A DNA stretch of 64,000 bases, from NCBI RefSeq assembly GCF_965641715.1, contig NZ_OZ282453.1; one strand, given 5' to 3'. The notes under the pieces are model-generated. The model was not told where the DNA came from. It did not search any database and was given only the letters and a program-made list of their open reading frames with translations. This document shows positions 209-57,761 of this stretch, piece by piece. How positions within the stretch are numbered: position 1 is the first letter of the stretch; each line of letters opens with the position of its first letter. This DNA is from Escherichia coli (GTDB lineage: Bacteria; Pseudomonadota; Gammaproteobacteria; Enterobacterales; Enterobacteriaceae). The position numbers were made by a program, and so were the translations under genes.

Positions 209-2352
209 TGGGAATGGCATCAGCGTTTACTCTTAATGTTCGTCTGGACAACATTGCTATCATCACCATCGACGTATCGGGTGAGAAAATGAATACCCTG
301 AAGGCGGAGTTTGCCTCGCAGGTGCGCGCCATTATTAAGCAACTCCGTGAAAACAAAGAGTTGCGAGGCGTGGTGTTTGTCTCCGCTAAACCGGACAACT
401 TCATTGCTGGCGCAGACATCAACATGATCGGCAACTGCAAAACGGCGCAAGAAGCGGAAGCTCTGGCGCGGCAGGGCCAACAGTTGATGGCGGAGATTCA
501 TGCTTTGCCCATTCCGGTTATTGCCGCTATTCATGGCGCTTGCCTGGGCGGTGGGCTGGAGCTGGCGCTCGCGTGCCACGGTCGCGTTTGTACTGACGAT
601 CCTAAAACGGTGCTCGGTTTGCCTGAAGTACAACTTGGATTGTTACCCGGTTCAGGCGGCACCCAGCGTTTACCGCGTCTGATAGGCGTCAGCACAGCAT
701 TAGAGATGATCCTCACCGGAAAACAACTTCGGGCGAAACAGGCATTAAAGCTGGGGCTGGTGGATGACGTCGTTCCGCACTCCATTCTGCTGGAAGCCGC
801 TGTTGAGCTGGCAAAGCAGGATCGTCCATCTTCCCGCCCTCTACCTGTACGCGAGCGTATTCTGGCGGGGCCGTTAGGTCGTGCGCTGCTGTTCAAAATG
901 GTCGGCAAGAAAACTGAGCACAAAACTCAGGGTAACTACCCGGCGACAGAACGTATTCTTGACGTTATTGAAACCGGATTAGCGCAGGGGACCAGCAGTG
1001 GCTATGACGCTGAAGCTCGCGCCTTTGGCGAACTGGCGATGACGCCACAATCGCAAGCTTTGCGTAGTATCTTTTTTGCCAGTACTGAAGTGAAGAAAGA
1101 TCCCGGTAGTGATGCGCCGCCTGCGTCATTAAACAGCGTGGGGATTTTAGGCGGTGGCTTGATGGGCGGTGGAATTGCCTACGTTACTGCCTGTAAAGCG
1201 GCTCTACCGGTAAGAATTAAAGATATCAACGCTCAGGGCATAAATCATGCGCTGAAGTACAGTTGGGATCAGCTTGATGGCAAAGTGCGCCGCCGCCATC
1301 TCAAAGCCAGCGAACGCGACAAGCAACTGGCTTTAATTTCGGGGACGACAGATTATCGCGGCTTTGCCCATCGCGATCTGATTATTGAAGCGGTGTTTGA
1401 AAATCTCGAGTTAAAACAACAGATGGTGGCGGAAGTGGAGCAAAACTGCGCCGCTCATACCATCTTTGCTTCGAATACTTCATCTTTACCGATTGGTGAT
1501 ATCGCCGCTCACGCCGCGCGACCTGAGCAGGTTATTGGCCTGCATTACTTCAGCCCGGTGGAAAAAATGCCGCTGGTGGAGATTATTCCTCATGCGGGTA
1601 CATCGGCGCAAACCATCGCCACTACGGTAAAACTGGCGAAAAAACAGGGCAAAACGCCAATCGTCGTGCGTGACAAAGCCGGGTTTTACGTCAATCGCAT
1701 CTTAGCGCCTTACATTAATGAAGCTATCCGCATGCTGACCGAAGGTGAACGGGTAGAGCACATTGATGCCGCGCTAGTGAAATTTGGTTTTCCGGTAGGT
1801 CCAATCCAACTTTTGGATGAGGTAGGAATCGACACCGGGACTAAAATTATTCCTGTACTGGAAGCCGCTTATGGAGAACGTTTTAGCGCGCCTGCAAATG
1901 TTGTTTCTTCAATTTTGAACGACGATCGCAAAGGCAGAAAAAATGGTCGGGGTTTCTATCTTTATGGTCAGAAAGGGCGTAAAAGCAAAAAACAGGTCGA
2001 TCCTGCCATTTACCCGCTCATTGGCGCACAAGGGCAGGGGCGACTCTCCGCACCGCAGGTTGCTGAACGGTGTGTGATGTTGATGCTGAATGAAGCAGTA
2101 CGTTGTGTTGATGAGCAGGTTATCCGTAGCGTGCGTGACGGGGATATTGGTGCGGTATTTGGCATTGGTTTTCCGCCATTTCTCGGTGGACCGTTTCGCT
2201 ATATCGATTCTCTCGGCGCGGGCGAAGTGGTTGCAATAATGCAACGACTGGCCACGCAGTATGGTTCACGTTTTACCCCTTGCGAGCGTTTAGTCGAGAT
2301 GGGTGCGCGTGGGGAAAGTTTTTGGAAAACAACTGCAACTGACCTGCAATAA
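208..2352 (+). CDS. fadJ: Anaerobic fatty-acid oxidation complex alpha subunit (enoyl-CoA hydratase / 3-hydroxyacyl-CoA dehydrogenase)
   Basis: 714-aa ORF with a crotonase-like N-terminal half and a Rossmann motif ([13 protein letters not shown]); sits directly downstream of fadI. Confidence 0.93.
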
Positions 2353-47141: not shown

Positions 47142-47498
47142 ATGGAAATGAATATGAAAACTGTAACTGATGATGAATTTCGTGAGAACCTGAGTGAAAT
47201 TCTGGATTACCTTTCTTCCGGTGGCAGTGTCGTTATCACGGCGCAGGGAGGGAAGGATGTTGTTCTTGCTGGTTCTGATCTTAGTCCTGAAATACGGGCT
47301 GTCCTTGGCAAAACCAAAAAACTGCGGGATCAAATAAACAAAATGAAGCAACCACTCTTAATAAATGCAGTGAGAGATCTGGAAAAACGTCATCCAGCTC
47401 TTGTCGCACAGAGAAAAAAAGGATTGTCTTTTGAAGATGCAATGAAGCGTACAAGAGAAAAACATGCGGATATCATTAAAAAGCTTGAGGATAACTGA
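47142..47498 (+). CDS. Phd/YefM-family antitoxin
   Basis: N-terminal T..EFRENLSEILDYL...VVIT..GKDVVL resembles the Phd/YefM fold; stop overlaps the toxin start (ATAACTGATGG). Confidence 0.7.
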   Translation: MEMNMKTVTDDEFRENLSEILDYLSSGGSVVITAQGGKDVVLAGSDLSPEIRAVLGKTKKLRDQINKMKQPLLINAVRDLEKRHPALVAQRKKGLSFEDAMKRTREKHADIIKKLEDN

Positions 47499-47905
47499 TG
47501 GACATAGTGTTTTTGTCAAAAGAACAAGTAGAACGTATCCATGCTGAAACTTTACCCCAGAGCGGAAATGCCAATGACGGGCTACTTGAAGGTGCTTTAA
47601 ATCGCGTCAGGACACTACACTACTATGAAGGGGTTGATGATATTCATGCTCTGGCTGCTATGTATTTGATTGGTATAGCCAAGGCTCATGCCTTTCATGA
47701 TGGGAATAAACGCACAGCTTTTCAGGCTGCATCAATATTTTTAATGATGAACTCTTCCGAACTTTCAAACTCCCTGCTGCTGGTTAAATTAACGGTGTTT
47801 TCAGCAATGGGGATAGCTACCCTTGAGGAAGTTACCTTTGCTTTGAAATTGCTGTCTGATTATGGCAATGAATTAATCAGCGACTACGAAGAAGATTATA
47901 TTTAA
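47498..47905 (+). CDS. Doc-family toxin (Fic fold)
   Basis: HAFHDGNKRTAF matches the Doc/Fic core motif HxFx(D/N)GNKR; 135 aa. Confidence 0.8.
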   Translation: MDIVFLSKEQVERIHAETLPQSGNANDGLLEGALNRVRTLHYYEGVDDIHALAAMYLIGIAKAHAFHDGNKRTAFQAASIFLMMNSSELSNSLLLVKLTVFSAMGIATLEEVTFALKLLSDYGNELISDYEEDYI

Positions 47906-48071
47906 TGCTGGCATACTCTGTCGTGTTAAGACAACAGCCTTTGCGGAGACAGGGCAGGGTGCCAGACTTGCCCGCAGCGCGTCTGACATGAGCAGTTATT
48001 CATCTTTTTTATTGTTTTTCTCCATGCAGGGCGACAGTGCGCCCCGATAAAATTAAAAGCCGTCAAATTCG

Positions 48072-48407
48072 TCATTCATGCGTTTTTTCTTCATGGTCTG
48101 TCACTTCTCTCCTGATAACTTCATTGCACAAATCAACGCACTCATTGCAGATGTAAACAGACGGTCCGGCAATCACCTTTGTGACTTCGTACTGGGATTT
48201 ATTGCAGAAGCTGCAATAAATCGTCTCCTCACCTGAAGTCCATGTTTTGCTGGTTTCGCCAGACATCAGTTGTTTGAGGTCTTTTTCACGACGAAGAACT
48301 ATCTGGCCACATTCAGCTATTTTTTGGATGTTGACATTTTCTTCTTTCGCCAGCGCTTCCATCCGCTCAATCAGTCGCTGCGCTTTTTCTCTGTCAATGC
48401 GTTGCAT
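48072..48407 (-). CDS. Stand-alone protein carrying a ClpX-type N-terminal zinc-binding domain
   Basis: C-terminal half [38 protein letters not shown] is near-identical in pattern to the ClpX C4 zinc-binding domain; N-terminal 60 aa helical; no AAA+ module. Confidence 0.7.
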
Positions 48408-48470
48408 TGTGTCCCCCTTGTTTATGTTCCCGGGTTAAAGTCATCAGGGCGGATGCGCCCTGATGTTGTG

Positions 48471-48782
48471 TTATTCGGGAAATAACGCCCGGATATTTCC
48501 GGCCATCTGACTGGTTATCTGTGCGGTTGATACTGGCTGTGACGCGGGGCGTTCTGTCCTGGTTTGTGTCACTGATAACGCTTCATCATCAGCCCATGCA
48601 GCCAGTCGGTAAGCCTCTGCCGGATTCATTTTCAGAAGTGCCAGCCCGGCCAGAAAAGCCACGCGTTGGCCGCTTTTGCGCGCTTCTGGTGTAAGGCTGT
48701 CCAGCCAGGCGCATGCTTCACCTTCGTTCTTGACGGCGGCGGGCTTCAGATAGAAACTTATCCGTCTGGTTGGAGTCGTCAT
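48471..48782 (-). CDS. ParR/StbB-like partition adaptor
   Basis: ~103 aa from MTTPTRRISFYLKP...EACAWLDSL...RVAFLAGLALL, parallel to plasmid R1 ParR; directly downstream of the parM-like gene. Confidence 0.65.
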   Translation of the reverse strand: MTTPTRRISFYLKPAAVKNEGEACAWLDSLTPEARKSGQRVAFLAGLALLKMNPAEAYRLAAWADDEALSVTQTRTERPASQPVSTAQITSQMAGNIRALFPE

Positions 48783-48786
48783 TGGT

Positions 48787-49746
48787 TTACTCCTTGTCCA
48801 TTGCGTACAGCCCATTAACCAGAGCAAACTGTGGCACCCCGTCCGCGATGAAAGTCGCATTAACTCCGCAGGCTTCGCGGATAGCGGGTGCCACAATCTC
48901 CGCCCCGCCACCGACAACCATCACCCGCCCGTAACCCGAAAAAACCGCCAGCGCGCGGATCACGCGTTGTTTCAGTGTTTCTTCCTTTTCACGAATAACC
49001 GCCATCAGGCTGGCGTAATGCGCGTCATTGTGGATGTGCTGGCGCAACCAGGCTTCATCATGGCGATGTTCGATAATGGTATTGGCGATGTGGTGACTGA
49101 TACGCATACCGTTAGTGGCCATCACCGACAGTACGGCATCGGCCATCAGGGAAACGCCTACGTGTGGATCGCAAAACACCTGGCTGATACCTGCCAGTTG
49201 CCCCTGAACCTTTGCCACATCCAGTGTGGTTCCGCCCAAATCCACAATCAGCAGGGATTCAAGCGGACTCATGTCAGCCAGTGCTTTAAAGCCAGCCGGA
49301 ATGGATTCAGGCATAACCCGTACGTTACGGATAGTGAATGTTTCGCCGTTCTGGTACTCCACCGGGCGCATAACGTTCGCTTTTTTGCGGCTGATGTTGG
49401 CCATGTCCGGCTGTGCGTTTGTGTCGAAATACTCGCTCAATGGCAGGGTGACAACCACATCCACCTCCTGTGGCGTGATGCCTGATTTGACCAGCGCGTG
49501 ATGAATGGCAATGACATTCACATCGCTGTACTGGTATTGCGTGTCGGTCGTCTGGACAAAGCGATCGCTGACCGGATCAAAACCATAGCGCACGCCATCA
49601 AGCATGTAGTTCGCGGGCTGCGAGCCACCGAACGGCGCAGACCATTCCGACTTGAAGCTGTTCGGGCTGATGGCGTTGCGGCGTTCGCCGTTCTCAGTCC
49701 ATGCCAGCTTGATGTTGGTGGAGCCGTCGTCGATACAAATTTTCAT
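48787..49746 (-). CDS. ParM/StbA-like actin-family partition ATPase
   Basis: MKICIDDGSTNIKLAW...ISPNSFK...YSDVNVIAIHHAL...VMVVGGGAE...LVNGLYAM follows plasmid R1 ParM through all actin-fold motifs; 319 aa. Confidence 0.85.
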   Translation of the reverse strand: MKICIDDGSTNIKLAWTENGERRNAISPNSFKSEWSAPFGGSQPANYMLDGVRYGFDPVSDRFVQTTDTQYQYSDVNVIAIHHALVKSGITPQEVDVVVTLPLSEYFDTNAQPDMANISRKKANVMRPVEYQNGETFTIRNVRVMPESIPAGFKALADMSPLESLLIVDLGGTTLDVAKVQGQLAGISQVFCDPHVGVSLMADAVLSVMATNGMRISHHIANTIIEHRHDEAWLRQHIHNDAHYASLMAVIREKEETLKQRVIRALAVFSGYGRVMVVGGGAEIVAPAIREACGVNATFIADGVPQFALVNGLYAMDKE

Positions 49747-49769: not shown

Positions 49770-49895
49770 ATTAATCGTTTACAGGATTTTTAAATCCCGC
49801 TTTTGCCTGTTTTGTGCGCGCTTCATATATCGCGGCACGTTTTTTGCTCATTTATGGGATTTGTGAATCCCGTTTCTGTCTGTTTTTTGTTTCCA
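49770..49895. repeat. Two palindrome-containing ~33-bp direct repeats upstream of the parM-like gene
   Basis: ggatttttaaatcccgcttttgcctgttttgtg and ggatttgtgaatcccgtttctgtctgttttttgt, about 73 bp apart; the second lies in the 3' end of gene A. Possible centromere or operator. Confidence 0.35.
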
Positions 49896-52645
49896 CTGGT
49901 CAGGCCACCCCGCAGCAGGTCTGCTTTGCGGCTGGCGCGTTCAGTGGTTTCACTGATTCTCTGTGCGTGCTCTGCGTCGCGGATGGCGCGCAGCATGTCA
50001 GAAAGCACGGTAACGGGTGTTTTCATGGTGTTCTGGTCCTGCTGAAGTGTGGATGCCAGGCGTGCGGCGGCTTCAGGGTCTGATGCCCCCAGCTGTGCCA
50101 GATAGCTGGCGACCGGGTTATGGCGGATCTCCGTGCTGCTTACGCCATGATTACGGCTCAGGCGCTGCCAGAGCTGCGTGATTCGGCTGTCCGGGCGGGT
50201 ATCCGGTTTGCGTACAATTTCAAATCCCTGCGGTGCAATGATGCTGCCGTCAACGTACAGACTGCCGCCCCGTAACAGGTGCTGCATCTGTTGTTCACCG
50301 ATATGCAGGCCGAGAGATTCAGCAGACTCCCGCCATTCTTTAGCGAGTAATTCGTGGTTATCAGGCAAAGGCCGTGGCTGTTTGCGGCTCTGTGTCCAGC
50401 TCTGCATTTCATCACTGCTGTTTTTTGCCTGTTTGTCACGAAGCGAACGCATCAGCGCCCGGCGTTCGTGCCGTTTCAGTGAGCGCATCCATTCGTTCAC
50501 GTCAACGCCGTCAGGAAGCTGCGGCCACGGTGCTGGCCGTTCTTTCGACTGTTCTGTCCCGCTGTTGCCTGTTTCCTGTACACGGGGACAGTTATTGCCA
50601 CGAGTCCAAGGGGCGGCAGGGCCGCCCTGAAGGTCAAAACCATTTTCGCGGGCGCTGTCTTCCGTTTCCGGTTTACGTCTTACCAGTTTCCAGTTATCCG
50701 GATGCGTGCACACACGGGAGGATTCCCCGATGAGTGGTGACCAGATCCCGTAAATCTGTACGCTCTGTTCGCCGTAATCATTCAGCTCATCTGCGAGGTC
50801 GTAGGCGGTGCGAATCAGGTAGTCTTTGCGTGGAACAAGTACGCCGCCCTGTTTTTCAATGTAGGTGGCAAAACACCCGGCATCGGCGGCAGCGAGTACC
50901 GCATCCATTGCGTCATCTTTCAGTCGTTGCGGGCCTTCCGGGTTGCGTGCCATCTGGCTGGCAAGGCGGCGCAGTTCACGCCACACCTGACGGGAGGGGA
51001 TGCCAAAGAACTGGAACTGGCGGACCCGATGAAGGCGCGCCCAGCCGATGGCGCGCTCCACACTCTCGGCCATTGATTTTCCGGTTTCGTGGTCAACGCG
51101 TGGCTTGCCCGTTTTCGGGTCGATGCCATCCACGGCGCGGCTGTCCAGGTTCTTTCCGATGTAGGTCGCGATATAGCTGGTTGGTGTGCCTTTTGAGCCG
51201 TCGACATACTCCGCCTTAAAGCGCGGAGTAATATCATTGCCCAGCTCGTGGCGGTCTTCCTGAATGGCAATATCGCGGGTGATGGCCACGATGCTGTCGA
51301 TTTCTTCCGGATGAGCAAAGACCATCATATGCCAGTGCACGGTGCCGTCATGGTGAGGCTCCACCGTGCGGATGCCATACCAGCGAAGACCGTCGCGGTT
51401 CAGTTTTTTGCGGACCGCCGCAAAAAACGTGTTAACCAGGTAATCGCTGGAGTCGCGCATGGTGGCCCCGTTCCATTTGGGATTCGGATGACCGTTCTCT
51501 GTTGTGGCGTGGTATTTTGACGGGCAGGTGACAGTCAGAAACACCGCTTTGTCGCCACGGGCTTCGGCCAGAAGTTCCAGCCCCTTCATGGTGGCCATCA
51601 TTTCTGCCTTACGGTGAACCGGGTTACTTACTCCCGCGTAATACACCGTCTCGAGATCAATCGTGAACCCGTCTTCATTTTCCAGCATGAAACTTTTCAG
51701 GAAATCGCGTGTTTTCTCGCGCTGTGCGCGAAACTCGCTTAACGCGTCCTGGCTCAGATAGGGCGATGTTTTTCTGGAAACCAGACAGGCGGCGCGGAGT
51801 TGTTCTTCTCTCCACTCGCAACGTAACAGCCACAGTTTGCGTTTCCACCATTCTGCACAGGTCAGGCGAAGGATTGCGCCCGGCAGCAGCTCCGTGTCCG
51901 GTTCGTTCCTCTGGTCTTTGTCTGTTGTCAGTGCGTCATAATGTGGAGGCATGGCGTGCAGGTGTAACGCCATGCGGGCCAGCATCTGATACGCCTTCAG
52001 CGTTACATCCATGGTCAGTTCGCCATCGGTCGCGCCAAAGCCATCGCAGAGTTTTTCGAAGGTGCTGCTGAACATCGCCGCCGTCATGGTGGCCAGTGTC
52101 TGTATCTGGTGTTTGTTGAGCTGCGGCAGGTAAAGCAAATCGTCCAGGCGTTCGCGTCCGGCAAGGGAGCGATAACCCTGTGTCAGCCAGCGGTGATCGG
52201 TGCGCTCCAGACGTTCGAATATTTTGCGCAGGTTTCCGCGCGCGTAGCGTTCAGCCTGCCAGCTCTTTTTGCCTTTCTGACGATCGGCTTCCTGTTTTTT
52301 GCGCAGGAAGGAGAGGTGGCGAATAAGCGGATCGCGCAGATAGGACGGCAGCAGGCGCAGCGAGGCCATGGCTTCATCCACCGCGCCGCGTGCCTGTTTT
52401 CTGGCATCTCCTGCCAGTGTGATGGTTTTGTCCTGTTTTTCCTGTGCGTCCAGGCTTTTATTAATCAGGTTGCCCAGCGGCGTTGCGGAGAACGCCGCAT
52501 CAGCCATTTCCTGGCGGTGCTCGTTCTCTACCCGGTAGGCATCCAGCCAGGAGGAAAGCGCGGATTCAGGAGCGGGGATCCCCGTTCCTTCACGCCCCAC
52601 TGCGTGGCGCGGTTGTTGCCAGTCCCTGATGTACTCTGCCGTCAT
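49823..52645 (-). CDS. A: Replication initiation endonuclease (P2 gpA family)
   Basis: 940 aa; large early protein with a tyrosine-containing segment (TSYIATYIGKN) of the rolling-circle initiator type; last gene of the early operon. Confidence 0.75.
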   Translation of the reverse strand: MTAEYIRDWQQPRHAVGREGTGIPAPESALSSWLDAYRVENEHRQEMADAAFSATPLGNLINKSLDAQEKQDKTITLAGDARKQARGAVDEAMASLRLLPSYLRDPLIRHLSFLRKKQEADRQKGKKSWQAERYARGNLRKIFERLERTDHRWLTQGYRSLAGRERLDDLLYLPQLNKHQIQTLATMTAAMFSSTFEKLCDGFGATDGELTMDVTLKAYQMLARMALHLHAMPPHYDALTTDKDQRNEPDTELLPGAILRLTCAEWWKRKLWLLRCEWREEQLRAACLVSRKTSPYLSQDALSEFRAQREKTRDFLKSFMLENEDGFTIDLETVYYAGVSNPVHRKAEMMATMKGLELLAEARGDKAVFLTVTCPSKYHATTENGHPNPKWNGATMRDSSDYLVNTFFAAVRKKLNRDGLRWYGIRTVEPHHDGTVHWHMMVFAHPEEIDSIVAITRDIAIQEDRHELGNDITPRFKAEYVDGSKGTPTSYIATYIGKNLDSRAVDGIDPKTGKPRVDHETGKSMAESVERAIGWARLHRVRQFQFFGIPSRQVWRELRRLASQMARNPEGPQRLKDDAMDAVLAAADAGCFATYIEKQGGVLVPRKDYLIRTAYDLADELNDYGEQSVQIYGIWSPLIGESSRVCTHPDNWKLVRRKPETEDSARENGFDLQGGPAAPWTRGNNCPRVQETGNSGTEQSKERPAPWPQLPDGVDVNEWMRSLKRHERRALMRSLRDKQAKNSSDEMQSWTQSRKQPRPLPDNHELLAKEWRESAESLGLHIGEQQMQHLLRGGSLYVDGSIIAPQGFEIVRKPDTRPDSRITQLWQRLSRNHGVSSTEIRHNPVASYLAQLGASDPEAAARLASTLQQDQNTMKTPVTVLSDMLRAIRDAEHAQRISETTERASRKADLLRGGLTSGNKKQTETGFTNPINEQKTCRDI

Positions 52646-52651
52646 AGTGAT

Positions 52652-53017
52652 TTACTTCGTCATGCCATTCAGGGTGTCGCGGCAGACTGTAGCCAGCCGC
52701 TGAATTTCCAGCACGGTGTCTTCTGTGTCGGCATGGCGATGTGTGATGCGGATGCTGTCGGCAATCACATCGACGATTGCAGAGGATGGGCGCTGGTAAA
52801 TGCCAATAACGGACGGGGTGCCACCTTCAATGCGGTAAAGCCTGTAATTTCCCTCGTGGCTGTCAATCATGTAGCGACCATCAATAACAATCTTTCCGTC
52901 AGCGAGCTGCGGTACAGGCAGGGATTTCAGGTACATGTCATAACGATCACGCACGCGAGCGGCAAGATCACGTTCTGTGTTGAGCAGGTATTCAAGAAAG
53001 TCGTTGGCGAGAATCAT
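52652..53017 (-). CDS. Hypothetical early protein
   Basis: 121-aa ORF immediately upstream of gene A on the same strand. Confidence 0.5.
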   Translation of the reverse strand: MILANDFLEYLLNTERDLAARVRDRYDMYLKSLPVPQLADGKIVIDGRYMIDSHEGNYRLYRIEGGTPSVIGIYQRPSSAIVDVIADSIRITHRHADTEDTVLEIQRLATVCRDTLNGMTK

Positions 53018-53089
53018 TGCGGCAATCCTCTTGTTACAGATGTGCGAAGGCCTCCCGCCGCAAGGTGCAGGAAAGGCCCGGAACAGGAG

Positions 53090-53320
53090 TTAATGGAGTT
53101 TGTTTTGCTGCTGGATGAGCTGTTGAAGCTCGTGCAGATCATCCGCCAGATAGCTGAAAACAGAGGCGGAATAAATGTTTGATAGTGCGTGGCTGCGCTC
53201 ATGCAGCATATTGATGTGCATGATTTGCGCGACGCGTGATGCGCGGGAAAGTCTGCGGTTGATTTCAGTCTGGATGTGACGACGCTCCGCGATAGCGCGG
53301 TGTGGTTTGCGGTTTGCCAT
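53090..53320 (-). CDS. Hypothetical early protein (small, basic)
   Basis: 76-aa ORF in the early operon. Confidence 0.4.
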   Translation of the reverse strand: MANRKPHRAIAERRHIQTEINRRLSRASRVAQIMHINMLHERSHALSNIYSASVFSYLADDLHELQQLIQQQNKLH

Positions 53321-53642
53321 GGTGTGGCCCCTTGTGTAGTAAGTTGTGAAAACTCACCATCCAGAGCTGCGAAACTGTGGGTGGCGAGACGTACGAGGTT
53401 CGCAGTACCGGCTACACAAGAACCCGGCCCGACCGAAGTCGGCCCCGTACGCCCCGCCATAATTCTGACGCGAAAAAAACGTGGCAATACAGTACGCACA
53501 AAAAAACCGCTGGCGCGGTTGTGCGCTTGTGTAGTCAGCAGGCTGCGAAACCCGGCACCCGTTTTGTGAGGTGCAGCGGAAATGTAACCTGACTGATTGC
53601 GGCATGGCAAGCGGTTTTTTTGTGTGTGCATGTTCTGGTTTC

Positions 53643-53942
53643 TTAGTGGTTCAGAAAAAAATCAAAAACCTTGTCAATGCGTTGCAGCAGCTCTTGCTGT
53701 ATTGCTTCCGGCGTTTCCGGTTCGCCTGGCGCCTCCAACGTCGCGCAGAAATCCTCGATTTCATGACGGAGCGTCAGGCGAATGGCGAGAGGTGTGGTTC
53801 TGGCGTGCTCCAGCTCATCCAGCAGCGCCAGCACAGCAGACGGCGAGAGCATTGCGCGAAACGCCAGTAATTTTTGAGGCGTTGCCATTCGTTGCAGGTC
53901 AGTCGCCAGTTCGCGTAATTCCTGGTGGTTGATGGCGCTCAT
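53643..53942 (-). CDS. Hypothetical early protein
   Basis: 99-aa ORF, start overlapping the upstream gene's stop. Confidence 0.5.
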   Translation of the reverse strand: MSAINHQELRELATDLQRMATPQKLLAFRAMLSPSAVLALLDELEHARTTPLAIRLTLRHEIEDFCATLEAPGEPETPEAIQQELLQRIDKVFDFFLNH

Positions 53943-54184
53943 GCTCTGGCTTCCTTCAGTAGCTGGTTAAACATGTTGGTAAGTGGATTGCCGCACCCGA
54001 ACGGCATCGGGTTTATCTGGTAAGAAAAGCGACCGCCTGTTTTGCGCTCTTTTCTTATGACTGAACCGCTGCGCCAGAGTCGGCGTAACTCCGCATTAAT
54101 GGCTGTGGTTGGGGTATTCAGTGCTGCGGCGATTTCTCCACCGCTACACCCCGGATTGGCGGCGATATAGTCCAGAATGGTCAT
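53939..54184 (-). CDS. Hypothetical early protein, possible winged-helix DNA binder
   Basis: 81 aa, MTILDYIAANPGCSGGEIAAALNTPTTAINAELRRL, an HTH-like pattern. Confidence 0.5.
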   Translation of the reverse strand: MTILDYIAANPGCSGGEIAAALNTPTTAINAELRRLWRSGSVIRKERKTGGRFSYQINPMPFGCGNPLTNMFNQLLKEARA

Positions 54185-54384
54185 CTGCGTGACTCTTGTA
54201 CCTGTCGGATAAGGTTCACCCGCACCACATTCGTGGCGCAGAAGTAAGTGCCGTCAGTGAGATAGATGTGATGTGCATCCTTTTCTGAACGGTGTTTGTC
54301 GATTGTGGTAATCAGGCGTTCGTCGACTTCGTATTCACGCCCTCTGGAGGTAAAACGAACGACAGGAAAATGCTTAATTGCCAT
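54181..54384 (-). CDS. Hypothetical early protein
   Basis: 67-aa ORF, translationally coupled in the operon. Confidence 0.45.
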   Translation of the reverse strand: MAIKHFPVVRFTSRGREYEVDERLITTIDKHRSEKDAHHIYLTDGTYFCATNVVRVNLIRQVQESRR

Positions 54385-54579
54385 TACGCCTCCTTGGCGT
54401 GTGCGAATACCTCCGCGAATGCGGATTGTTTTACATTTTCTTATTTAATCTGTGGTTTTATTTGCTCTGTTATTCGCCAGTGAAAAAGCGTTCAATCTTT
54501 TTTATTGAATGAATAATTCGCATAATCCCAATAGCGCAGGCCACCGAAATAATCAGAACAAGCCATGAGATAAATATAC

Positions 54580-55938: not shown

Positions 55939-56226
55939 CTAAAGTCCCAGCCACAACAACCATGCGTCGCGGCGTTCTTTCGGTTGCTCAAAAAACGCTT
56001 TGCGCATGCCTTCGTTAAATGCTGGCAGATATACCCAGTTTTCTGATGCACGCGTCTTTACTGAACCTGGTTTCACAAAGTCAATTGTCGGTAGCTTTGC
56101 TGCGTCAATCATGGTTCTGACTGTGGATTCCTTGCGGCCGATCATCTTGGCGAATAGTTGATATGGCACCGCTTCAAGTGGATATGGTGCTACCTGAATG
56201 AACCCCCCAAGCTCTGATTCGCTCAT
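55939..56226 (-). CDS. cox: Cox-like excisionase / early transcriptional regulator
   Basis: ...VPYQLFAKMIGRKESTVRTMIDAAKLPTIDF...NWVYLPAFNEGMRKAF...RRDAWLLWLGL parallels P2 Cox throughout. Confidence 0.85.
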   Translation of the reverse strand: MSESELGGFIQVAPYPLEAVPYQLFAKMIGRKESTVRTMIDAAKLPTIDFVKPGSVKTRASENWVYLPAFNEGMRKAFFEQPKERRDAWLLWLGL

Positions 56227-56660: not shown

Positions 56661-56756
56661 GGCCAGAAAACTGGTTAGACCTGCTTTTTGTCTGGTCTGA
56701 TTATTGCTGGAAAGAGGCTGGAGAAATTGTAGAGCGGTTCATTGGAGGGCTTCGTA

Positions 56757-57761
56757 ATGTCGATTAAGAAGCTCGAAGATGGTCGTTATTTGCTGGACAT
56801 CAGGCCGAACGGACGCAAGGGAAAGCGCGTGCGTAAGGTATTTGACAAAAAATCGGTAGCGGTGGCCACTGAACGCTACATCATGGCGAACGCTGAAAAG
56901 CGGGAATATATACAGGGCTACCGTGATCGTCGAACGCTAAATGATTTGCTTGAGTTGTGGTGGATGTATCACGGCCAGCACAGGCGTAAGGCGGAAGAAG
57001 ACCGAAAACAACTGCGCAACATAATCAATGAGCTTGGCGCTGATATGCAGGCTGTGGATCTTGATAAGCTGAAAATTATCGCGTGGCGTTCTCAAAAGAT
57101 AGCTGAAGGATTGAAACCGTCATCTGCTAACAGGTACATGAATCGGTTATCCGGAATGTTTACCGTGCTGAAAAAAATAGGTCTTTGGGATGCAGAACAT
57201 CCAGTAAGGGGAATTTCTATTCTTTATGTATCTCCACGAGAAATGGCGTTCCTGTCACAGAAGGAAGTGGCGCTATTGCTCGATACACTGGAGGGCGACT
57301 ACTGGCGTGTTGCGCTTTTGTGTTTAAGCACAGGGGCGCGCTGGAGTGAAGCTTGTAAGCTTCGTGGTGAACAGATAGTTCATAACCGTGTAACGTTTCT
57401 TGAAACCAAAAATGGCCGGAAGAGAACAGTGCCAATTTCGCAGGCAGTTTGTGAGGCGATCAAAACCAGAGAAACAGGCGGCTTGTTTGAGGTGAAGTAC
57501 CGGGAATTCTGCCTGGCGCTGAAAAGAGTTAAGCCCGACTTACCAAAAGGCCAGGCTGCACATGTGCTGCGGCATACGTTCGCCAGCCATTTTGTGATGA
57601 ACGGAGGAAACATTATTGCGCTTCAGAAGATTCTTGGTCACGCAACCATTCAGCAAACAATGGCATATGCGCATTTTGCACCGGATTACCTGCAGGATGC
57701 GGTGGCCCTTAATCCGCTGAAAGGTGGCGTAAGTGTCCACGCAGTGTCCACGGGGGATTAA
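56757..57761 (+). CDS. int: Tyrosine integrase (P2 Int family)
   Basis: MSIKKLEDGRYLLDIRPNGRKGKR...LSTGARWSEA...HVLRHTFASHFVMNGGNI...MAYAHFAPDYLQDA; catalytic R, H-x-x-R and Y present; 3' end faces the attachment site. Confidence 0.9.
   Translation: MSIKKLEDGRYLLDIRPNGRKGKRVRKVFDKKSVAVATERYIMANAEKREYIQGYRDRRTLNDLLELWWMYHGQHRRKAEEDRKQLRNIINELGADMQAVDLDKLKIIAWRSQKIAEGLKPSSANRYMNRLSGMFTVLKKIGLWDAEHPVRGISILYVSPREMAFLSQKEVALLLDTLEGDYWRVALLCLSTGARWSEACKLRGEQIVHNRVTFLETKNGRKRTVPISQAVCEAIKTRETGGLFEVKYREFCLALKRVKPDLPKGQAAHVLRHTFASHFVMNGGNIIALQKILGHATIQQTMAYAHFAPDYLQDAVALNPLKGGVSVHAVSTGD

Follow-up and report, generated by a model that had tools for sequence, protein, structure and literature searches.

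A candidate C4-type antisense-RNA cassette precedes an epsilon-like, putative anti-repressor gene in a P2-like prophage of Escherichia coli

In phages P1 and P4, the C4-type RNA is cut out of a precursor, and the type specificity of the C4 RNA lock is known for P1 versus P7. Features of the P1 immI C4 RNA were reportedly described by Citron and Schuster in 1990 and by Biere et al. in 1992. In the immI regions of P1 and P7 (c4 RNA, icd, ant), two recognition segments of C4 pair with a and b sites that are present in duplicate, b2 being located on the ribosome-binding site of the first downstream gene; immI gates an anti-repressor, and type differences give heteroimmunity (PMC12197685). The immunity region of P4 has the order PLE promoter, SeqA, CI RNA, SeqC, then epsilon and alpha. 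IsrK is equivalent to SeqA and C4 to CI RNA (PMC3632133, PMC4825925), and P4 epsilon inactivates the C repressor of P2 (PMC8628076, PMC2995052). In Gifsy-1 of Salmonella (isrK/STnc1160/orf45/anrP), the anti-repressor AnrP is encoded downstream of a processed C4-like RNA; the read-through RNA is kept from being translated by pairing with the IsrK part of the same molecule, and short IsrK supplied in trans relieves this block (PMC4825925). The RNA families and the mechanism are already known from P4, P1/P7, N15 and Gifsy-1. In the literature searched, we found no description of such a cassette in P2-like helper-type phages, placed before an epsilon homologue and upstream of the replication gene A. 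We consider it very likely that a gene-free interval in one such prophage is a self-contained C4-type antisense-RNA control cassette that gates an epsilon-type anti-repressor, following the design of P4 and P1 immI. The sequence evidence is solid and the function is inferred from it; the anti-repressor gene is most likely kept off by two RNAs through base pairing.

The right part of the window, i.e., of the whole 64-kb stretch of DNA that was analysed, is a P2-like prophage of the P88-like kind (Xuanwuvirus), and positions 53000..53950 show 100% identity over 951 bp with Xuanwuvirus P88_4B11, a member of Peduoviridae with a 37.1-kb genome. The prophage repressor, encoded on the plus strand, is of the P2-C type (39% identity to P2 C). 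The early operon runs on the minus strand and contains, in this order, cox, several small ORFs, a MarR-type winged-helix gene, an Ead/Ea22-like ORF, the 322-bp interval, a 76-aa ORF, a 121-aa ORF and gene A. The genes and frames that matter for the argument are:

56742..57761, plus strand, integrase
56226..55939, minus strand, cox, first gene of the early operon
53942..53643, minus strand, Ead/Ea22-like ORF of 99 aa, which ends at 53643 directly before the interval
53631..53014, minus strand, a 205-aa open frame across the interval
53090..53320, minus strand, 76-aa homologue of epsilon (derepression/anti-repressor); Pfam PF25738 Derepression, 32.5 bits (cut-off 27)
52652..53017, minus strand, orf121, 121 aa, phrog_3237, next in the operon after the epsilon-like gene
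49823..52645, minus strand, replication gene A, 940 aa, last of the genes that follow the cassette; Pfam Phage_GPA, 436.7 bits

The first-pass annotation had noted about 320 bp of GC-rich non-coding DNA in a tightly packed operon. The gap is there and measures exactly 322 bp (53321..53642), the next credible ORF starting from the ATG at 53320. Other gaps in the early operon range from -4 to 85 bp, with a single larger one of 465 bp after cox, where small ORFs are annotated in the phage record. The label "GC-rich" holds as a mild excess (55.3% for the interval, compared to 52.6% for the operon), and the C4 part alone reaches 64.8%. No tRNA or tmRNA was found in a search of the window, and other Rfam families in the region of the interval gave sub-threshold noise only (anti-hemB, IRES_Bip).

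With int, C, cox, A, portal and terminase present, the prophage is a complete P2-like helper-type phage. A P4-like satellite was considered as the host element and was ruled out by the P2-type neighbours (cox, C, int, A, then ParM, portal, terminase). The hallmark of such satellites is a co-located set of alpha primase, sid, psu, delta, alpA and integrase in about 11 kb (PMC8628076), and no alpha primase gene occupies the replication-gene position of this prophage. The segment 3' of gene A (47142..49746) encodes ParM with a StbB-like partner, a ClpX-type zinc-finger protein and a Phd/Doc toxin-antitoxin pair, and these plasmid-type maintenance genes precede portal and terminase. A plasmid state of this P2-like phage may merit testing, because the C4-RNA phages P1, P7, N15 and P4 are all capable of plasmid life.

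Using Rfam covariance models, we scanned positions 52500..54500 permissively and the whole window at gathering thresholds. Both scans give the same two minus-strand matches, with E-values of 2.3e-16 (C4) and 6e-13 (isrK), i.e., far beyond chance. On the same models, the immunity region of P4 scores 60.8 bits for isrK (the SeqA region) and 74.9 bits for C4 (the CI RNA). A small RNA had been among the possibilities raised by the first-pass annotation, together with a proposal to run a covariance search and to compare related prophages. The search recovered isrK and C4 at full length, so that the interval holds two RNAs of known Rfam families, IsrK/SeqA-like and C4/CI-like, and the comparison showed an interval in which variation is concentrated in six covarying patches, described below; both checks proved decisive. 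From upstream to downstream, the elements are:

53581..53621, minus strand, cassette promoter, sigma-70-like, predicted by consensus scan
53500..53574, minus strand, IsrK/SeqA-like leader RNA; Rfam RF01394 isrK, 64.1 bits (gathering 50), model positions 1-77 of 77
53549..53543, minus strand, site a1 (UUCGCAG) in hairpin 2 of the isrK-like RNA, complementary to a'
53534..53526, minus strand, site b1 (CUACACAAG), single-stranded in the isrK-like RNA, complementary to b'
53520..53505 (stem-loop) and 53506..53500 (U-run), minus strand, intrinsic terminator AACCGC-GCCA-GCGGTT, predicted by scan
53377..53464, minus strand, C4/CI-type antisense RNA; Rfam RF01695, 83.2 bits (gathering 45), model positions 1-87 of 87
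53420..53412, minus strand, segment b' (CUUGUGUAG) in the loop of C4 hairpin 2
53405..53399, minus strand, segment a' (CUGCGAA) in the 3' multiloop linker of C4
53373..53367, minus strand, site a2 (UUCGCAG) downstream of C4, complementary to a'
53339..53331, minus strand, site b2 (CUACACAAG) downstream of C4, complementary to b'

The leader is laid out as hairpin 1, hairpin 2 with site a1, the single-stranded site b1 and the intrinsic terminator, and its minimum free energy (MFE) structure has three hairpins, the last of which is the terminator. This terminator is the minus-strand hairpin with a T-run that the first-pass annotation had seen; the hairpin is real, although its coordinates had been placed about 10 nt off (53509..53531 instead of 53520..53500). 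Taken alone, the isrK-like RNA folds no better than shuffled sequence (z -0.41). The C4 RNA consists of two hairpins enclosed by a long closing stem; its MFE structure (-47.7 kcal/mol, z -4.46) is the Rfam consensus structure. The three helices of C4 are 100% paired in 37 distinct relatives, and four of the pairs are changed on both sides, i.e., by compensatory substitutions. A further Rfam model, RF03163 c4-a1b1, scores 20.9 bits here, below its gathering threshold of 46.7, and P4 itself scores 44.1 bits; the element that it scores is also covered by the isrK model. The isrK (RF01394, no clan) and c4-a1b1 (RF03163, clan CL00128) matches overlap both in the window (53500..53587, minus strand) and in P4 (L003 8615..8705, minus strand), and the two look like redundant families that lack a clan link.

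The predicted promoter of the cassette has an A-tract (53621..53615), a -35 element TTGCCA (53610..53605), an 18-nt spacer and a -10 element TACATT (53586..53581). The match to the isrK model begins, with model position 1, 6 nt past the -10 element, and the predicted transcription start is G 53574. Relatives with five different upstream contexts become alignable from about 10 nt upstream of the -35 element. Both hexamers are conserved across two prophage lineages and the sequence of the 18-nt spacer is variable; the P4 counterpart at the same place reads TTGCCT-17-TATAGT. Another promoter-like site is found just upstream of C4 (53487..53459, minus strand; TTGCCA, 17 nt, AATTAT). Its -35 reads TCGCCA in about half of the relatives and its AATTAT is invariant. 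As a second promoter this site is doubtful: the start would fall inside the C4 closing stem, and the -35 is not conserved. The invariant AATTAT is perhaps a part of the C4 5' flank. No LexA box was seen by eye near either promoter-like site.

The exact complements of b' (9 nt) and of a' (7 nt) each occur twice on the same strand and in the same order. The 9-mer target is found twice on the minus strand, each time following the 7-mer target at a distance of 15 to 34 nt, whereas about 0.5 occurrences of a 9-mer are expected by chance in the whole window, both strands included. No other copy of the 9-mer is present in the 64-kb window except for the complement of the C4 loop itself, and the window contains no other pair of a and b sites. 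The downstream b2 overlaps the Shine-Dalgarno sequence AAGGGG (53333..53328), 7 nt before the ATG at 53320, and in every recognition type the b2 match ends in an AAG(G/A)GG Shine-Dalgarno. In the MFE structure of the read-through RNA, a1 and b1 pair in cis with a' and b'.

The 76-aa gene that begins at this ATG bears the RefSeq name "derepression protein". BLASTP gave 29% identity to P4 epsilon (E 4e-9), which itself scores 170 bits on PF25738. In a comparison of two phages, the 76-aa proteins share 96% identity and the C repressors only 33%; the 76-aa protein therefore does not track the repressor of its own phage. It may recognise something conserved among P2-type repressors, or act on other prophages, or have some other target. 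The product of orf121 shows no similarity to P4 orf151, and no NCBIfam names were found for the small proteins. One relative, Escherichia phage 520873 (NC_049344), also a Xuanwuvirus, is free of the cassette and keeps orf121 and A; therefore replication control cannot depend on the cassette, which is thus an accessory regulator. In this phage (L084 3229..3981), a stretch of 141 nt separates the MarR-type gene from orf121 and A, and homology to the window restarts within the 3'-terminal part of the epsilon-like ORF (~53132 in window coordinates); the junction looks like a deletion scar.

Combining these elements, we propose the following sequence of events. Transcription would start at ~53574 from the sigma-70 promoter (53610..53581), and some transcripts would end at the terminator (53520..53500), producing a ~75-nt IsrK/SeqA-like RNA with a1 and b1. 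Read-through transcripts, as well as those from the early promoter, would carry the C4-like RNA, whose exposed b' and a' would pair with a2 and b2 upstream of the epsilon-like gene. Ribosomes would be kept off this gene because b2 overlaps its Shine-Dalgarno, and the cassette would thereby keep an anti-repressor silent, because the gene is a homologue of P4 epsilon, the inactivator of P2-type C repressors. By analogy with P1 and P4, the untranslated RNA may terminate early, resulting in less orf121 and A; orf121 expression may be affected by this polarity. The lock would be type-specific because the recognition segments differ between phages. The upstream a1 and b1 may compete for the C4 segments, and the ribosome-binding site would become accessible once the short RNA is in excess, as in Gifsy-1. 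It should be noted that the direction of the a1/b1 effect, i.e., decoy or co-target, is uncertain, because the cis pairing resembles the inactive "structure A" of Gifsy-1, yet SeqA of P4 is required for immunity (PMC3632133).

Of the 5426 complete E. coli genomes, 1152 contain the cassette, which the RefSeq E. coli annotation leaves blank; about a fifth of complete genomes thus carry it with nothing annotated, and phage records show spurious proteins over it. In IMG/VR, 80 loci have a gene for the 76-aa protein, and the interval is present in every one of them, with 86-100% identity. In a second E. coli P2-like prophage lineage (A protein of 837 to 927 aa, epsilon-like protein of 73-75 aa), both RNAs are found with the same spacing before the epsilon-like gene in six of six loci.

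Variation and covariation were analyzed in 43 aligned sequences, among which 37 are distinct. The variable positions cluster in six patches (a1, b1, b', a', a2 and b2) that change together. For b'-b1, 100% of cells are paired, with six of nine pairs changed on both sides and up to four pair types; the corresponding fractions of pairs changed on both sides are 4/8 for a'-a1, 5/10 for b'-b2 and 4/8 for a'-a2. In the control, in which the partner was slid by 1-3 columns, only 37-50% of cells are paired, and the covariation score drops from 0.31 (upstream) and 0.54 (downstream) to 0.03-0.19. Among 86 loci, we found five a-types and 11 b-types in 15 combinations, which shows that the segments reassort. 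The mean energy of the a'+b' duplexes is -23.0 kcal/mol for cognate compared to -10.8 kcal/mol for non-cognate combinations, and the cognate one is the best in every row. This combination of covariation and duplex specificity is the pattern expected of a type-specific RNA lock. Two of three same-genome cassette pairs are of the same type (n=3, fragmentary contigs), which therefore does not support exclusion by type. No a'/b' type is identical between 57 P4-like loci and the P2-like prophages.

Several loci have unusual arrangements. In E. coli GCA_900448625.1 (L144 4747..6120), two complete cassettes (isrK-like RNA, C4 and epsilon-like gene) lie in tandem upstream of A. Their types differ, the first having a' GTGGAAA and b' CTTCGTTTG, the second a' CTGCGAA and b' CTTTGCTAG, and the second epsilon-like gene was missed by the gene finder of the source. 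A C4 variant with a 17-nt insertion in hairpin 2 occurs in a single contig, IMGVR_UViG_2582580934_000004 (L073 ~270..300); its loop therefore carries two b' segments, CTTTGCTCT (the type of locus L055) and the CTTGTGTAG of the window, and its own targets are of the window type. This C4 could be a recombination intermediate or an RNA of dual specificity. Segments with isrK and C4 that are ~70% identical to those of the window are found in Stx-converting phages, mEp460 and ST64B (for example, AP012536 7890..8080, NC_019716 33457..33642 and NC_004313 30004..30189). Some of the CDS starts in these lambdoid phages probably run over the RNAs, because the RNAs lie under or beside antirepressor or Rha CDSs.

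Alternative readings of the interval differ in how much of this pattern they can accommodate. The first-pass annotation had suggested an attenuator ahead of A; a terminator does lie in the path of the early operon, whereas the main control appears to be antisense and the next gene is the epsilon homologue. If the interval were a bare cis-acting attenuator, the terminator would lower read-through into A with neither a trans-acting RNA nor antisense pairing. The hairpin and U7 in the transcription path agree with this, as do the terminators annotated inside early operons of phage 186, but the full-length C4 downstream of the terminator, the duplicated targets and the three-way covariation between loop and targets are left unexplained, and we regard a bare attenuator as quite unlikely. 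The RNAs could also act mainly on other elements, either in defence against P4-like satellites (on SeqA/SeqC) or as an Hfq-binding sRNA on host mRNAs. It has been speculated that prophage IsrK-C4 systems guard against satellites (PMC3632133), the module is homologous to that of the satellite itself, and the Rfam entry describes isrK as Hfq-binding. Conversely, the P4-like loci and the P2-like prophages have no types in common, each cassette holds its own perfectly matched targets, and the window offers no further a+b site pair; an action mainly elsewhere is unlikely. A replication-related site, i.e., an origin or initiator-binding region ahead of A, had been a further suggestion of the first-pass annotation, and it finds no support. 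Position beside A is the one point that speaks for it, whereas the nick site and origin of P2 are annotated inside gene A, the relative without the interval keeps orf121 and A, and the pattern of conservation is that of a paired RNA, so that we give this reading next to no weight.

The remaining alternative is a protein-coding interval, in which the 205-aa frame would be a "transcriptional regulator" and a member of the Pfam Ash family. This frame is open in 31 of the 34 relatives that share its start, matches PF10554 Phage_ASH with 26.5 bits (cut-off 26) and is annotated as a CDS, gp51 of NC_049391 (L001 5320..5937), in one GenBank/RefSeq phage record. However, the PF10554 match covers exactly isrK, C4 and the targets, and PF10554 also matches the old "cI" ORF of P4 (59.7 bits; L003 8168..8584, minus strand), a locus whose product has been described as the CI RNA (PMC3632133, PMC4825925). 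Variation shows no excess in the third codon position (33/41/37); among 43 distinct sequences (the window and 42 relatives), the start context is missing from 9, and in 3 of the other 34 the frame is interrupted by a stop within the interval. The frame also overlaps the epsilon-like gene in another frame and is not called in RefSeq E. coli genomes. The absence of a codon-position signal, together with a lost start or a stop in 12 of 43 sequences, is consistent with the view of the first-pass annotation, which had discounted the frame and seen no credible ORF; the frame is most unlikely to code for protein. Three other ORFs in the gap, of 83, 97 and 71 aa, have no meaningful Pfam matches. The P88 record shows gp13, a 62-aa hypothetical protein, over the RNA locus on the opposite strand (L002 4056..4244, minus strand), and nothing beyond an open frame supports the gp51 and gp13 CDSs. 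PF10554 itself seems to derive from translated sequences of the SeqA/CI/SeqC RNA locus. This family served as the "epsilon" marker for P4-like satellites (PMC8628076); the true family of P4 epsilon is PF25738. Scoring at threshold on P2-like prophages, PF10554 could blur calls of satellite versus helper.

The antisense cassette would add RNA gating of an anti-repressor to a phage family in which accounts of the lysis-lysogeny switch usually involve proteins only (C/Cox; Tum in 186). A broader proposal is tentative, and we would rather bet against it than for it: P2-like helper-type phages of E. coli may have, in addition to the C repressor, a second, RNA-based layer of immunity, a P4-type IsrK/C4 lock on an epsilon-type anti-repressor with polarity on A, whose two recognition segments have diversified and reassorted into at least 15 largely orthogonal types. 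If true, this would point to recurrent RNA-level conflict or exclusion among these phages and would suggest a common origin of the P4 immunity-plus-epsilon module and the module of the helper family, so that the satellite would have borrowed a phage anti-repressor cassette as its weapon against the repressor of the helper, or vice versa. For tests of specificity rules, the 15 largely orthogonal two-site types found in nature provide a set of matched kissing pairs.

The described systems resemble this locus to different degrees. Tum of phage 186, like the product proposed here, is an anti-repressor of a Peduoviridae member that is silent in the lysogen; however, it is a DinI-family protein controlled by LexA at promoter p95. 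Neither C4 nor isrK is present in the scanned regions of P2 and 186, and no member of the Tum/DinI family was found among the window ORFs scanned. P1 and P7, as judged from the literature, share the C4 family, two-segment pairing and a gated anti-repressor (a putative one here), but the downstream genes are Icd/Ant there and epsilon-type here. In addition, P1 is a plasmid prophage in which the C1 repressor controls one operon promoter, and no such operator was identified here.

Gifsy-1 is similar in that an IsrK RNA is made from a promoter of its own and ends at a leaky terminator, a read-through transcript contains a processed C4-like RNA, and an anti-repressor (putative here) follows downstream, with promoter, terminator and processing being predictions here; a1/b1 are predicted to pair in cis with a'/b' here, too. 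Conversely, Gifsy-1 is a lambdoid phage, AnrP belongs to another protein family, and the 45-codon ORF over its C4-like RNA is translated and coupled to anrP, whereas the first credible ORF here comes after C4.

In P4, the isrK and C4 matches have the same order and orientation as here, a promoter with a TTGCC -35 is at the same place, a1/b1 lie upstream and a2/b2 downstream, with b2 of P4 also abutting a Shine-Dalgarno, a homologous epsilon-type gene and then a replication gene follow downstream, and recognition types are combinatorial in both. The differences are as follows: (i) the cassette resides here in a complete P2-like helper-type phage and not in a satellite; (ii) the epsilon homologue here follows C4 as the first gene, at a distance of 57 nt, whereas epsilon of P4 starts ~245 nt after CI, behind another translated start; (iii) the replication gene here is the rolling-circle initiator A, and in P4 it is the primase alpha; (iv) the spacer from terminator to C4 is shorter here; and (v) the recognition types are not shared with the P4-like loci sampled. 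The cassette ties the immunity-epsilon module of the satellite P4 to the family of its helper.
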